IMG/VR virus record: IMGVR_UViG_2778261462_000003
Direction: 5' to 3' (one strand)
DNA length: 5,347 nt
Source of the DNA: a virus
Lineage: Duplodnaviria; Heunggongvirae; Uroviricota; Caudoviricetes
A model generated the notes under the pieces. The model made no database searches. It saw only the letters and a list, made by a program, of their open reading frames with translations, and was not told the origin of the DNA. Shown piece by piece: positions 1,700 to 5,347 of this stretch. Position 1 is the stretch's first letter. Each line of letters begins with the position of its first letter. The position numbers were made by a program, and so were the translations under genes.

Positions 1700-2122
1700 G
1701 TGGCAAAAGTTTTTACACAAGAAGAGCGGGAAAAAATTAAATGGCAGGTGGTGGAACTCGTGCGCCAGAGCGGCCGTGAGACGTTACGGCAACTGGAAGC
1801 TAAAACAGGTGCGACTAGATATCTGATGAGCGTTCTTGCCAGAGAGCTGGTAGCCAGTGGCGATGTATACAACTCCGGCTACGGGTTATTCCCCTCTGAA
1901 CAGGCGCGTAAGGACTGGCAAAACGCCCGCAAAAAACTCTCGAGGGCAAAGGTGAAGAAACCTGCTGTGGTTGATCCGGACCTTATCTGGTCATCACCTG
2001 ACGGAGAAATACGTCGCTACGACAGTCGCCTAAACATAATCTGTCGCGAGTGCCGGAAGAGCGAAGTTATGCAGCGCATACTGGCTTTCTATCAGGGTAA
2101 TTTTCAGGACGTGGCGCAGTGA
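1700..2122 (+). CDS. Hypothetical phage protein, 140 aa
   Basis: Track ORF with GTG start at 1700, preceded by the purine-rich aagggggac (1688-1696). Its stop TGA (2120-2122) overlaps the GTG start of the next ORF in a GTGA junction, indicating translational coupling. No Walker A motif, so it is not the expected helicase loader. Function unknown. Confidence 0.55.
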   Translation: MAKVFTQEEREKIKWQVVELVRQSGRETLRQLEAKTGATRYLMSVLARELVASGDVYNSGYGLFPSEQARKDWQNARKKLSRAKVKKPAVVDPDLIWSSPDGEIRRYDSRLNIICRECRKSEVMQRILAFYQGNFQDVAQ

Positions 2123-2565
2123 GTGCACCGGCAACCATTCTTGATATGTGCTGTGGCAGCCGCATGTTCTGGTTCGATAAGTCTGACGAACGGGCGATAT
2201 TCAGCGATATCAGAAAAGAAGGATACACATTACGCAATGGGAGACGCTTGATTATCAGCCCTGACATTATCGCAGATTTTCGTGCATTATCATTTGCAGA
2301 CGCATCTTTTTCGATGGTTGTATTAGACCCTCCGCATCTTGAGAGTGTTGGTGATAACGCCTGGATGGGAAAGAAATATGGACGGCTGAATAAAGATGCC
2401 TGGCGTGATGATTCGCGACAGAGATTTAAAGAAGCCTTTCGGGTGTTGAGGCCGCACGGCGTTCTGATTTTTTAATGGAATGAAACGCAAATACCGGTAA
2501 GCCAGATTCTGGCACTGACAGACAGAAAACCTGTTATCTGTCAACGAACAGGGAAAAAACGATAA
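2119..2565 (+). pseudogene. SAM-dependent DNA (adenine) methyltransferase-like gene, disrupted by an in-frame TAA and probably 3'-truncated
   Basis: The 118-aa track ORF (2119-2475) has a glycine-rich LDMCCGSRMFWF segment and DPPH (gac cct ccg cat, about 2326-2337), fitting the (D/N/S)PP(Y/F/W/H) motif IV of amino-methyltransferases. The TAA at 2473-2475 is followed in frame by 29 more sense codons (WNETQIPVSQILALTDRKPVICQRTGKKR) to a TAA at 2563-2565. A single change AAA to TAA would restore ...VLIFKWNETQ. The total is still too short for a complete enzyme. Confidence 0.5.
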
Positions 2566-2714
2566 AACCCACTGGATTATTTTTATGAAAGAGGCATCCA
2601 GTGAGTAGATTCGTAAGGCTACAGATACGTATATCTGAATAATTAAATTCAGTTCTGTAAATAAAATTTAATCCTTAACCGGATGGATTTCTGCACCCTC
2701 AGAACATCAGGAGG

Positions 2715-2730
2715 CCGCCCGAAAGGGCGG
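2715..2730 (+). promoter_or_regulatory. GC-rich hairpin with GAAA tetraloop between a Shine-Dalgarno sequence and a start codon
   Basis: CCGCCC (2715-2720), GAAA (2721-2724), GGGCGG (2725-2730): a perfect 6-bp stem. AGGAGG sits immediately 5' at 2709-2714 and the ATG at 2738, so the linear spacing of 23 nt is too long unless the hairpin folds. Confidence 0.35.
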
Positions 2731-2737
2731 TAGTGAA

Positions 2738-2920
2738 ATGCGAAAGTTCAAAATTATTATTGAAACGGGAATAGCTGGTGGAGATTTTGAGGATGTATTC
2801 GAAGTGGACGATGACGCAACACCTGAGGAAATTCATGACGGAGCATAAGAAATTTTCTTTAACTACTGCAATTACTCATACCACGAAATAAAAGACGATG
2901 AGGAAGAACAAAGTGGCTGA
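2738..2920 (+). pseudogene. Short acidic ORF interrupted by an in-frame TAA (ORF A)
   Basis: ATG at 2738, MRKFKIIIETGIAGGDFEDVFEVDDDATPEEIHDGA, TAA at 2846-2848, then 23 in-frame sense codons (EIFFNYCNYSYHEIKDDEEEQSG) to TGA at 2918-2920. Translated by hand; below the track's length cut-off. No recognised family. Confidence 0.3.
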
Positions 2921-3089
2921 TTTTTGTTCAGCTAAATATAACATCAGTTTTGAAGAGCGGGATGAACTATTAATGGACTATGGTGAGTTACGCGGTGGAA
3001 GTGCTGCTGATGTCGAATCCTAGCGTGATGACTATGAAGCGGGAAAAACTCCGGTCGAAGCATATTGTGATGAGTGGGGCGATGAATGA
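2898..3089 (+). pseudogene. Short ORF interrupted by an in-frame TAG (ORF B), coupled to ORF C
   Basis: ATG at 2898, MRKNKVADFCSAKYNISFEERDELLMDYGELRGGSAADVES, TAG at 3021-3023, then 21 in-frame codons (RDDYEAGKTPVEAYCDEWGDE) to TGA at 3087-3089. That TGA overlaps the ATG of the next ORF (3086-3088) in an ATGA junction. Confidence 0.3.
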
Positions 3090-3373
3090 GCGAGATTAAT
3101 TATCAGGAAGGGCATGAAACGGCGGGGCAAGCAAAACCAGTGGCATGGCGATATCGCTACGTGAAAAAAGGCGTTACGGACTTTCAGGGGAAGTAGTGGT
3201 CTGGTGACTGGAAATATGTACCGAAAAAAGAGGATTGTAACGACAGGCCGAACTATCAAATTCAGGCCTTATTCACTGCCTCACCAGTCCCAGTTACATC
3301 AGAAGAACTGGTTAAAGCTGTGCACTTTTATGAACAACTAAAACGCGAAAATCCACCAACATCCGGCAACTAG
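3086..3373 (+). pseudogene. 95-codon ORF interrupted by an in-frame TAG (ORF C)
   Basis: ATG at 3086, MSEINYQEGHETAGQAKPVAWRYRYVKKGVTDFQGK, TAG at 3194-3196, then 58 in-frame codons (WSGDWKYVPKKEDCNDRPNYQIQALFTASPVPVTSEELVKAVHFYEQLKRENPPTSGN) to TAG at 3371-3373. Looks like a real small phage protein with one nonsense codon. Family not recognised. Confidence 0.35.
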
Positions 3374-3627
3374 ATTAATGGATTAACTATGTCGGTTAAA
3401 CGACCAGCCAACTGAAAAAGCGGAAACCTGATTACAGGTTGCCAGATAAGGCAATGAGCTACCTGGCGCGGAACGGACTGATAAGTATGGGGAATGTTTT
3501 ACGATGAACCTTTAGACTAAAGAGTTTGTAACGCTATGTAAGTGATTTTTTCTGGTTTAGATATTTATATGTCCGGCCAAATTGAGGTGTGTTTAAATGT
3601 AATTGCACATTGATTGTAGGAGGAATA

Positions 3628-3807
3628 ATGAAAAACGCATTGCAGTTTTTGTTTGTTGCGTTCTGGTTGTTCGCATCATGTATGCCCATCATCTTCACAG
3701 CAAGGTATATGGAAAAAGTTGATGTTTTGATATTAATATTTGGATATATAAATGCCCTTTTTTTAGGGGTGTTCATGGCGGTCATGTGCATTGAATACTG
3801 GCGGTAA
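3628..3807 (+). CDS. Small predicted membrane protein, 59 aa, two hydrophobic helices
   Basis: ATG at 3628 is preceded by AGGAGG (3619-3624), a strong Shine-Dalgarno at good spacing; the track ORF 3589-3807 is in the same frame. Product MKNALQFLFVAFWLFASCMPIIFTARYMEKVDVLILIFGYINALFLGVFMAVMCIEYWR has two hydrophobic segments. Upstream 3540-3620 is strongly AT-rich, with TGTAAT at 3598-3603 as a possible -10. Confidence 0.5.
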   Translation: MKNALQFLFVAFWLFASCMPIIFTARYMEKVDVLILIFGYINALFLGVFMAVMCIEYWR

Positions 3808-3908
3808 ATACAGCGAACTCCATTGGTTTAGTTGGATATTTACTGTGCTGGACAAAAACGGTTTGCGGGGAAATCTTAGTTAAGTAGAATGACTGCGGGT
3901 GCTTGAGG

Positions 3909-3944
3909 CTATCTGCCTCGGGCATGGACACCAACGGCAGATAG
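3909..3944. repeat. Perfect 9-bp inverted repeat separated by 18 nt
   Basis: CTATCTGCC (3909-3917) and GGCAGATAG (3936-3944). The left arm overlaps a competing 5-bp stem, GAGGC (3905-3909) with GCCTC (3915-3919), so the two structures are mutually exclusive. Confidence 0.4.
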
Positions 3945-4037
3945 AGAAAAGCCCCAGTTAACATTACGCGTCCTGCAAGACGCTTAACATTAATCTGAGG
4001 CCAATTTCATGCTAGACACATGTAGGTTAGCCTCTTA

Positions 4038-4053
4038 CGTGCCGAAAGGCACG
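4038..4053 (+). other. Second GC-rich hairpin with GAAA tetraloop
   Basis: CGTGCC (4038-4043), GAAA (4044-4047), GGCACG (4048-4053). Same architecture as the hairpin at 2715-2730. Not followed by a T-tract. Confidence 0.3.
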
Positions 4054-4084
4054 GAGAAGCAGGCTATTGTTAACACCAAGCTGT

Positions 4085-4117
4085 AATGTCCCCTTTGAAC
4101 CATTCTAAAATGTCCCC
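4085..4117. repeat. Direct repeat AATGTCCCC (two copies, 24 bp apart) just upstream of the transposase; possible IS terminal or binding site
   Basis: AATGTCCCC at 4085-4093 and 4109-4117. No inverted copy (GGGGACATT) is present in 5261-5347. Confidence 0.3.
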
Positions 4118-4140
4118 AGACAATTCTCTGGGGGATTTTT
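4114..4140 (+). terminator. Terminator-like hairpin that sequesters the transposase ribosome-binding site
   Basis: CCCCAGA (4114-4120), loop caattc, TCTGGGG (4127-4133), then gATTTTT (T-run 4136-4140). The 3' arm contains GGGGGA (4130-4135), the only Shine-Dalgarno-like sequence for the ATG at 4142. Such folding is a known way IS elements block activation by read-through transcripts. Confidence 0.4.
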
Positions 4141-4141
4141 C

Positions 4142-5260
4142 ATGATCAAAGAGACTGTTACGATGAGTCATAAGGAACTCCACCGACTTCAGATTATTCA
4201 GGAACAAGCTGCGGCACGCATTGGCATTTCTATTCGGCAGGTTAAACGTCTGGTGCAACGGTATAGAAATGAAGGGCCTTCTGGTCTGGTTTCCCACCGA
4301 CGTGGAAAGCGTCCTAATAATTCCTTTTCTACTGAATTCAGAGCAACAGTAATTTCACTCCTCAAAGGCCGTTACGCTGATTTTGGACCTACGTTTGCGT
4401 GCGAAAAATTGCGCGAGATACACGGTTTATCTTTATCCGTTGAAACTCTCAGAAAGTGGATGATAGAAGAGGGGTTATGGCGTGAACGCCGTCGTAAAAT
4501 TGCCCGTATATATCAACGCCGCATGCGACGACCATCTTACGGTGAACTGATCCAGATTGATGGCTCACCTCATGACTGGTTTGAAAATCGAGGCCCCAGA
4601 TGTACACTGATCGTTTTCATTGATGATGCCACCAGTGCGTTGATGGCGTTGCGTTTTGTGCCTGCTGAAACAACCCGGGCTTACATGGAAACCCTCCGGG
4701 GTTACCTTAATGATCATGTCGTACCGCTCGCTCTCTACTCTGATAGACACAGTATATTCAGGGTAAATAACCCAGAGCGGGAAGGTGAGCTGACCCAGTT
4801 CACTCGTGCGATAAAGACACTGGGCATCGAGCCAATCCATGCCAACAGCCCGCAGGCAAAAGGGCGGGTAGAGCGCGCCAATCAGACACTACAGGACAGG
4901 CTGGTCAAAGAAATGCGGCTTCAGAATATCAGTGATATTGAAACAGCAAATGCATGGTTGCCGACCTTTATTGAAGCCTATAACAACCGGTTCGCTACGT
5001 CGCCTCGTACTACTGATAATGCTCATCTTGATGTGCACCATTCTGAAGAGGAACTGGGTTATATCTTCAGCCTACAGGCGAAGCGCGTTCTGTCTAAAAA
5101 TCTCACTTTCCAGTACAAAAGCAGTGCGTTTCAGGTACGCAGTGAGGGCCGGGGATATCGACTTAGGCATTCGGTTGTTACTGTATGCGAGAACTTTGAC
5201 GGTGAAATTAACGTTCTGTATGAACCGCCCCGGGTTTCCTGGAGAGTGTTTTATCTGTGA
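4142..5260 (+). CDS. DDE transposase with integrase-core (rve-like) catalytic domain, IS481/ISNCY-like
   Basis: 372-aa track ORF. N-terminal helix-turn-helix-like region (GISIRQVKRLVQRYRNEGPSGLVSHRRGKRPNN), then the catalytic triad in its usual contexts: IQIDGSPHDW, LALYSDRHSIF and KGRVERANQTLQDRL. Family assignment is from memory of ISNCY/IS481-type N-termini (MS.KEL.RL.IIQ...GLV..RGK.SN). The stop at 5258-5260 may be premature if homologs are longer. Confidence 0.75.
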   Translation: MIKETVTMSHKELHRLQIIQEQAAARIGISIRQVKRLVQRYRNEGPSGLVSHRRGKRPNNSFSTEFRATVISLLKGRYADFGPTFACEKLREIHGLSLSVETLRKWMIEEGLWRERRRKIARIYQRRMRRPSYGELIQIDGSPHDWFENRGPRCTLIVFIDDATSALMALRFVPAETTRAYMETLRGYLNDHVVPLALYSDRHSIFRVNNPEREGELTQFTRAIKTLGIEPIHANSPQAKGRVERANQTLQDRLVKEMRLQNISDIETANAWLPTFIEAYNNRFATSPRTTDNAHLDVHHSEEELGYIFSLQAKRVLSKNLTFQYKSSAFQVRSEGRGYRLRHSVVTVCENFDGEINVLYEPPRVSWRVFYL

Positions 5261-5347
5261 ACTCAGGCTGCCAGATCATCGTTTCCGATGGAAGCATAAT
5301 AAGCTTTTTCTGCTTCTGCCGGAGGAGTATGGCCCAGCCTTTCCAGC

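Follow-up and report, generated by a model that had tools for sequence, protein, structure and literature searches.

In the hok/sok locus of plasmid R1 (parB) the nascent hok leader forms a hairpin at its 5′ end and then refolds, and the full-length mRNA is inert until its 3′ end is processed. The antisense RNA Sok pairs with the mok initiation region and triggers decay by RNase III, and Hok is made once the unstable Sok is gone. In Escherichia coli K-12 the chromosomal loci hokA, hokC and hokE are reportedly inactivated by IS150 or IS186, copies of which were said by Pedersen and Gerdes in 1999 to lie just downstream of the hok open reading frame (ORF), and a further gene of the family, hokD (relF), belongs to the relBEF operon of the Qin prophage. 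Here we analyse a 5,347-nucleotide stretch of viral DNA (Caudoviricetes; IMG/VR record IMGVR_UViG_2778261462_000003; hereafter the window), and within it positions 3808-4141, a hairpin-dense region described in an earlier reading of the letters alone (the original prediction) as a possible small RNA or regulatory 3′ untranslated region (UTR). We conclude, with a probability of about 0.9, that this region is the control half of a hok/sok locus, consisting of promoter, mRNA leader and antisense RNA gene, from which the toxin gene has been severed by a transposon.

The region belongs to the hok family (RF01794; PF01848). Rfam RF01794 ('sok antitoxin, CssrC') matches the plus strand at 3897-4068 with 104.1 bits (gathering score 59) and an E-value of 1.3e-23, a match that is above the curated threshold and spans the full model, positions 1-157. 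As the final three model positions are AUG, the matched strand is the sense hok mRNA leader, which holds the complement of Sok. Other Rfam families gave only chance-level matches in the window (ceN48 at 23 bits and a minus-strand 'sok' match at 19 bits), and neither tRNA nor tmRNA was found in it. The leader (3897-4067, plus strand) contains a 5′ domain, the Sok-target region, the mok start and the hok Shine-Dalgarno (SD) sequence at 4053, and ends after the 'AU' of the hok AUG. Like R1 hok/sok, it has the conserved 5′ GGGUGCUUGAGGC start, an early hairpin that rivals a native stem, a mok start in a GAGGC/GCCUC-closed stem, a hairpin 5′ of the hok SD and an antisense gene over the mok start; unlike R1 hok/sok, it lacks the toxin ORF and the 3′ fold-back element.

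Comparison with other genomes places the break precisely. BLAST of 3808-4141 against complete E. coli genomes gave two classes of match, with a median of 2 and a maximum of 11 matching places per genome. The whole stretch is carried by ∼510 complete genomes, in which RefSeq has no annotation beneath the match, and thousands of matches with 85-98% identity all end at query base 260 (window 4067), where the annotation is hokD or 'Hok/Gef family protein'. In prophages and plasmids, intact hok/sok loci can be aligned base for base as far as the hok start codon, the last matching letters being its 'AT' at 4067, and in three of these loci (L002, L003 and L004) the hok coding sequence begins on the last two matched bases. 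In the alignment the intact loci read GGAGAAGCAGGCTAT followed by GAAGCAG, and the window reads GGAGAAGCAGGCTAT followed by TGTTAACACC. No Hok/Gef ORF lies directly 3′ of the leader, as homology stops at 4067 and insertion sequence (IS) DNA comes next, and the 3′ fold-back (fbi) element is also absent, lying instead 3′ of the hok ORF that was displaced, which in E. coli ATCC 8739 is hokD. With both the toxin ORF and the 3′ element missing the region is a fragment, and it does not qualify as a complete toxin-antitoxin locus.

The 25-codon ORF at 4009-4086 (plus strand; translation MLDTCRLASYVPKGTEKQAIVNTKL), the only one that the original prediction had found here, is present and can now be identified as a truncated mok, because in intact loci the equivalent ATG starts an ORF of 70 codons that continues in the same frame into Hok, the product matching Pfam HOK_GEF at 3e-23. 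Its first 20 codons are those of mok, with 17 of 20 residues identical to the O157 locus, and the remaining 5 codons and the stop come from the transposon end. This in-frame, 70-codon long form sets the prophage subfamily apart from R1. Upstream of the leader a putative hok promoter lies at 3862-3890 on the plus strand (−35 TTTGCG/TTGCGG at 3862-3868; −10 TAGAAT at 3885-3890, 6 nt 5′ of the first base of the leader), placed by its distance from position 1 of the RF01794 model and by conservation with intact loci from ∼3850. In plasmid relatives the hok module starts at ∼3893, regardless of the ORF that precedes it.

The region is non-coding and rich in RNA structure, as had been described. The leader (171 nt) folds at −64.5 kcal/mol compared to −46.2 ± 4.0 kcal/mol for 200 dinucleotide shuffles (z = −4.6), none of which folds as well. 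The 9-bp perfect inverted repeat noted earlier, CTATCTGCC (3909-3917) pairing with GGCAGATAG (3936-3944), can be read directly from the sequence and grows in a repeat search to 20-nt arms (3898-3917 with 3936-3955). Its stem forms the core of the native 5′ domain (3897-3955, plus strand), in which the 5′ GGGUGCUU pairs with AAGCCCC to close the stem and the first 59 nt fold at −26.8 kcal/mol. The competing stem, GAGGC at 3905-3909 with GCCTC at 3915-3919, is likewise present and sits on folding within an 11-bp early hairpin (3899-3925; 3899-3909 with 3915-3925, plus strand), which the first 34 nt of the leader form at −18.8 kcal/mol (z = −4.5).

We compared both folds across eight diverse leaders, four of them from other genera. 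In the native stem three of nine pairs show compensatory changes and 97% of the aligned cells are paired, and the closing helix is 95% paired. The early hairpin is paired in 90.9% of cells, compared to at most 47% when its partners are slid by 1-3 columns; it shows one-sided G-C/G-U changes only, so that two-sided compensation is seen in the native stem and not in the early hairpin. The covariance check proposed with the original prediction therefore finds the native 5′ stem conserved, and the structural switch suspected there is real, both of the competing folds being kept in relatives, but it is also already known. Messenger RNAs of the hok type have two mutually exclusive 5′ folds, and the metastable 5′ hairpin forms during transcription; the groups of Gerdes, Gultyaev and Pleij reportedly described these alternatives.

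The small RNA that had been envisaged is most likely specified by this region, but it is not a novel one: it is Sok, on the opposite strand. The predicted sok gene (3946-4016, minus strand, ∼70 nt) would give an RNA whose long hairpin (3957-3993) is preceded by a single-stranded 5′ tail and followed by a U-rich 3′ tail, its ends at ∼4016 and 3946 being those that we take it to have by homology to Sok of R1. The minus-strand 72-mer folds at −30.3 kcal/mol, compared to −15.3 ± 2.9 kcal/mol for its shuffles (z = −5.3), and more weakly on the plus strand (−19.5 kcal/mol across the identical 72 nt). Within it, the GCGTC-ctgcaa-GACGC stem (3968-3983) is flanked by the direct repeat TTAACATTA at 3958-3966 and 3984-3992, as previously noted and as a repeat search recovers; this flanked stem, being stronger on the minus strand, is what would be expected of a terminator for the antisense Sok RNA. 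The segment 3958-3992 is identical in an alignment of four loci that otherwise differ, and the Sok hairpin here is longer than in plasmid relatives.

The predicted sok promoter (4024-4052, minus strand) was assigned by position and homology, with its −35 at 4052-4047 (GTGCCT here, TTGCCT in intact loci) and its −10 at 4029-4024 (TAACCT). C4052 is the derived state, since intact loci and many transposon-bearing alleles have A, and it also extends the GAAA-tetraloop hairpin at 4038-4053 (CGTGCC-GAAA-GGCACG), which is present as described, as is the second GAGGC/GCCTC pair at 3997-4001 and 4030-4034.

The left end of an element of the ISEsa1 family (IS1202 family) begins at 4068, and 74 nt of it (4068-4141) fall within the region. 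The suggestion that the region might be the left end of an IS is correct for these 74 nt and incorrect for 3808-4067. The boundary is set at 4068 because copies of the IS in species-representative genomes, viral contigs and metagenome contigs show 45 distinct 22-nt left flanks and have sequence in common only from TGTTAACACC on. The left terminal inverted repeat (IRL; TGTTAACACCAAGCTGTAATGTCCCC, 4068-4093, plus strand) starts at this boundary, which is common to more than 40 flanks, and matches the right end of the element. Two subterminal 19-nt direct repeats (ACCA..CT.TAATGTCCCC, ending in ATGTCCCC; 4075-4093 and 4099-4117, plus strand) emerged from a repeat search and are probably binding sites for the transposase; motifs of the ATGTC type lie at nearly equal distances from the right end.

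[quoted passage not shown] A terminator pattern scan returned this site only (4113-4134 and T-run; 8 pairs, 5 of them G-C, followed by ATTTTT), and its fold has a z-score of −2.1. The hairpin and T-run probably stop or occlude read-through into the transposase gene.

The gene itself (4142-5221, plus strand) is named in RefSeq as 'IS1202-like element ISEsa1 family transposase' or 'ISNCY family transposase', and an intact homologue carries Pfam HTH_28/HTH_32 and rve_3 domains. WP_004196353.1 is an intact allele from a plasmid. In the window it is a pseudogene, cut at 5222 by the end of an IS3-family element (5222-5347, TGAACCGCCCCGGG...; 100% matches to multicopy 'IS3 family transposase' sequence), and relative to the plasmid and E. 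coli E2865 copies it has a 27-bp in-frame deletion after ∼4198, between TTCAGGA direct repeats. Viral contigs carry the transposon in both a deleted (3274-bp) and a 3301-bp version. E. coli genomes carry many copies of the IS3-family element, at up to 50 places each.

The fate of the toxin gene is seen in E. coli ATCC 8739, to which the window is 99.96% identical up to 5223, where homology stops. The gene order there is leader, IRL, transposase pseudogene ('ydfW' being its C-terminal piece), flxA, ydfV, relB, relE and hokD, so that the element is 3.3 kb long, with flxA, ydfV and relBE as cargo, and hokD lies 3.3 kb from the leader. IRL is at 6509 and the right inverted repeat (IRR) at 9782-9807, and GGAGAAGCAGGCTAT is found on both sides: directly before hokD the right end GGTGACACTTCTGCTTTGCGTTGACA is followed by GGAGAAGCAGGCTAT and then by the G of the hokD ATG. 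The same 15-mer follows IRR directly before the hokD ATG in locus L021. In the window the left copy of this 15-bp target-site duplication occupies 4053-4067, from the hok SD through the 'AT' of ATG. The reverse complement of the right end matches the left end at 20 of the first 28 nt, and over 60 nt the two ends match at 27 positions, compared to 15.0 ± 3.3 in shuffles. Two initial candidates were discarded: a duplication of 27 bp, guessed from IS1202, as the duplication is 15 bp, and an IRR ∼1.6 kb from IRL, the length given by ISfinder, where the best match is 11/26. At ∼1.6 kb from IRL conservation between copies ends at a small hairpin, beyond which the cargo differs.

An empty site is provided by strain EC07, in which the locus is uninterrupted and the target 15-mer is single-copy. 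The left flank matches ATCC 8739 at 96% identity as far as IRL, the right flank at 99% identity starting one base ahead of the right 15-mer, and in EC07 the two matches overlap by 16 bp, the hallmark of an insertion of 3.3 kb that duplicated 15 bp of its target. hokD (relF) is thus the orphaned toxin ORF of the severed locus, now read from the relBE promoter. The relBEF operon of the Qin prophage is the other half of the same ancestral locus, with hokD after the right 15-bp copy; its missing 5′ half, the region described here, is absent from K-12 and elsewhere unannotated. K-12 MG1655 lacks positions 2913-7711 of the ATCC 8739 locus (4.8 kb), including leader, sok and IRL, and for this reason hokD appears leaderless in K-12. 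In MG1655 (1647174-1647636) 'ydfW' is a C-terminal transposase remnant and 'ydfX' a truncated ydaT-like gene, and the deletion joins the two.

In the history that we propose, a transposon of the ISEsa1 group (IS1202 family) inserted between the hok SD and AUG, and insertion of this 3.3-kb unit duplicated 15 bp of target and parted the leader from hokD. The control half left behind has a putative hok promoter, weak and constitutive. Transcription of the leader probably persists, giving a dead-end RNA of ∼245 nt, and Sok production may also continue, from a promoter that the −35 change has weakened. Most likely neither leader nor Sok controls the toxin in cis.

The insertion is not the only one of its kind. 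Units with the same two ends and different contents occur on a Citrobacter plasmid (6.1 kb; cytochrome b, CDF transporter and relBE), where GGAGAAGAAGGCCAT is duplicated and a 52-aa Hok ORF follows; on a K. oxytoca IncF plasmid (12.8 kb; ncr nickel-resistance genes and others, then relBE), with duplication of GGAGTTGTATGGGTC(C) at a hok-like leader; at a second E. coli hok locus, where two junctions on different contigs duplicate (T)GGAGGGGCTATGATG; in a gut enterobacterium (2.6 kb; relBE), with an imperfect duplication of GGATTCACGACGGAT; and, as a diverged relative, in Scandinavium (4.3 kb), which has a GNAT/DUF1778 toxin-antitoxin pair and no relBE and duplicates CATTAAGCTGCAAAT at a target that is not hok. 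Target duplications of 15-16 bp are found in five independent insertions.

Rfam 'sok' matches adjoin IRL in 6 of 20 species-representative loci scanned, and hok-like leaders account for 27 of the 45 distinct 22-nt left flanks of exact IRL by a crude signature and for ∼35 by eye, the extra cases including an element in opposite orientation in the same 15-mer (locus L025) and tandem elements. All hok-like left flanks end at SD-ATG. The copies have identical element ends but leaders in their flanks that diverge by 20-30% and through indels, and so represent separate insertion events. A single shared ancestral insertion behind the hok-like plasmid flanks was considered and rejected, since flanks and duplications differ widely and the ends do not. 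GGAGAAGNAGGCYAT is a candidate target sequence for the element. The transposon thus appears, on these comparisons, to home to hok loci and to have created the relBE-hokD operon. The wider proposition is that ISEsa1-type elements are cargo transposons built of IRL, transposase, variable cargo (nickel-resistance or CDF transporter genes, for example), a type II toxin-antitoxin module and IRR, which make 15-bp duplications, home to the 15 bp at the hok SD-ATG, with each such hit release Hok from control by Sok and fuse it behind relBE, and gave rise to relBEF; we regard this as probable, and hold it less firmly than the identity of the region itself.

Further arrangements of the element were observed. 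In tandem elements (locus L026, 2891-2930, and locus L264) IRR is followed by a 10-15-bp target remnant and then by another IRL, which suggests that the duplicated target stays attractive after the first insertion. In genome 2534681836 (loci L149, L183 and L141) two transposon copies in two hok loci have exchanged flanks, pointing to recombination between the copies or to an assembly artefact. The unit of Scandinavium hiltneri (2927-7201 of its locus), at 81% amino-acid identity, has GrpB-like and acetyltransferase genes and a GNAT/DUF1778 (TacAT-like) pair by its right end, a position at which a toxin-antitoxin module may be a general feature.

Several observations weigh against the severed hok/sok locus or against the transposon as we delimit it. 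The Rfam family is named 'sok', yet the strand that it matches is the hok-sense leader. A strict sigma-70 consensus scan of 3560-4260 called neither the hok nor the sok promoter (0 sites), so both are placed purely by homology, and the T-to-G change at the sok −35 (C4052) should weaken that promoter, such that Sok may be poorly made. Toxin ORF, right end and second target copy all lie outside the window and were deduced from near-identical genomes. The hairpin 5′ of the transposase gene is weakly conserved in diverged relatives and shows no covariation, so its role is one that we infer. The transposase copy is a pseudogene, and mobility is deduced from comparison only. One viral contig (IMGVR_UViG_2912051188_000002, 1345-4645) holds a 3301-bp IRL-to-IRR unit with only a 6-bp repeat (CGCCTT) at a site that is not hok. 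Finally, ISEsa1 is listed as 1609 bp long with 15/22 terminal repeats and no detectable target duplication (PMC10132070), an entry that conflicts with our delimitation of the element.

These last two points would fit a different route by which relBE reached hokD, for example the recombination of a minimal toxin-antitoxin cassette that earlier authors had proposed, with ISEsa1 as a 1.6-kb IS nearby and the repeats secondary or coincidental, and PMC6379469, in describing the integration of relBE into hokD, names no transposon. We nevertheless consider such a route improbable: units of 2.6, 3.3, 4.3, 6.1 and 12.8 kb with the same ends each have their own 15-16-bp duplication, the ends match at 20/28 nt with similarly placed motifs where the best inverted repeat at ∼1.6 kb reaches only 11/26, and the empty-site allele lacks exactly the IRL-to-IRR segment. 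The same allele speaks against the idea that all of 3808-4141 is terminal IS sequence, an idea suggested by its position directly 5′ of a transposase gene; everything left of 4068 is syntenic with the empty site and element copies elsewhere share only 4068 onward, which leaves this explanation next to no probability. Hardly more credible is a free-standing small RNA with a switch or a 3′ UTR of the upstream ORF at 3628-3807. Dense and significant structure, two competing stems and an ORF that ends at 3807 would all agree with it, but the full-length RF01794 match and the homology with complete hok loci account for every stem, and in plasmid relatives the start of the module is independent of the upstream ORF. 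Both the novel small RNA and the regulatory 3′ UTR of the original prediction thus give way to a hok/sok leader.

A severed hok/sok locus is compatible with one further proposal, namely that the orphan sok is no relic and has been retained as an 'anti-addiction' antitoxin, acting in trans to damp related hok mRNAs from co-resident prophages or plasmids. The sok strand folds strongly, and its hairpin (3958-3992) is identical in loci that differ elsewhere; near-identical targets exist, given the several matching places that E. coli genomes can have, prophage hok loci of O157 are 93% identical, and the junction allele is found in ∼510 complete genomes. However, the derived −35 change from TTGCCT to GTGCCT in the lineage of the window should weaken the sok promoter, and loss of most of the leader in E2865-type lineages and of all of it in K-12 argues against strong selection, so that we see this as unlikely, if less so than any of the alternatives above.

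How the severed locus and its transposon differ from described systems can be set out from here. Like hokA, hokC and hokE of K-12, this is a chromosomal hok/sok locus disabled by a mobile element; unlike those loci, the element lies between SD and AUG, parts regulator from toxin, carries cargo and has a recurrent site preference. The integration of relBE into an ancestral 70-codon hokD is attributed to Ramisetty and Santhosh 2016 in PMC6379469 and is also treated in PMC5120126. In the IS1202 family target duplications are 16-28 bp in some groups, and the ISAjo2 group targets pdif/dif (PMC10132070). The present element shares with that family an HTH and rve transposase, ends that start with TGT, long duplications and sequence-specific targeting, and departs from it as catalogued in its target, the hok translation-initiation region, its cargo genes, the toxin-antitoxin module by its right end and its 15-bp duplication. 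In logic only it resembles Tn7-like transposons, as a DDE transposon with cargo, subterminal repeated sites and one conserved target; it has a single transposase gene and no TnsABCD-type proteins and inserts in both orientations (locus L025), and we claim no membership. In the literature searched, which was an incomplete selection, we found no paper that ties relBE-hokD to a transposon of the ISEsa1 type, to its ends, to a duplication of 15 bp or to the targeting of hok. The hok/sok kind is therefore known and this locus unannotated, and the hok targeting of the transposon seems to be undescribed.

Recognizing the region as a hok/sok remnant guards against its being misread as a new small RNA or riboswitch, and it shows that remnants of this sort go unannotated by RefSeq in ∼500 complete E. 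coli genomes. The context shows where the regulatory half that hokD (relF) lacks is to be found, and it points to a transposon insertion as the maker of the relBE-hokD operon. If ISEsa1-type elements are indeed cargo transposons that home to hok loci, this would explain both the classic relBEF of E. coli and the recurrent relBE-hok arrangements on enterobacterial plasmids, and the region, as the regulatory half of hokD, might live on as an orphan Sok antitoxin. The context further suggests that a member of the IS1202 family has a second and very different target in addition to dif sites, the translation-initiation region of a toxin gene. The insertion preference also matters in practice: on plasmids of Klebsiella, Citrobacter and Enterobacter the same element brings along nickel-resistance genes among other cargo.

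Directly 5′ of the hok module a 59-codon hydrophobic ORF (3628-3807, MKNALQFLFVAFWLF...) is kept in the empty-site allele; it has no Pfam match and is unannotated in the RefSeq record of ATCC 8739. Window positions 2119-3400 (4560-5948 of the ATCC 8739 locus) hold decayed prophage genes with internal stops and frameshifts, namely a truncated SAM-dependent methyltransferase gene, a DUF7167 pseudogene and a frameshifted hypothetical gene. In E. coli E2865 (2440-2560 of its locus) ∼2 kb, roughly window 2060-4048, has been lost between GTGCCGGAAG in a DUF977 gene and GTGCCGAAAG in the leader hairpin; the deletion, a common one carried by more than 35 of the fetched loci, leaves the DUF977 gene joined to the leader's final 19 nt. 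Finally, in some strains (MB57 and CH459) a copy of IS1 is inserted within window 3560-4400, splitting the match into two pieces over ∼1.6 kb.

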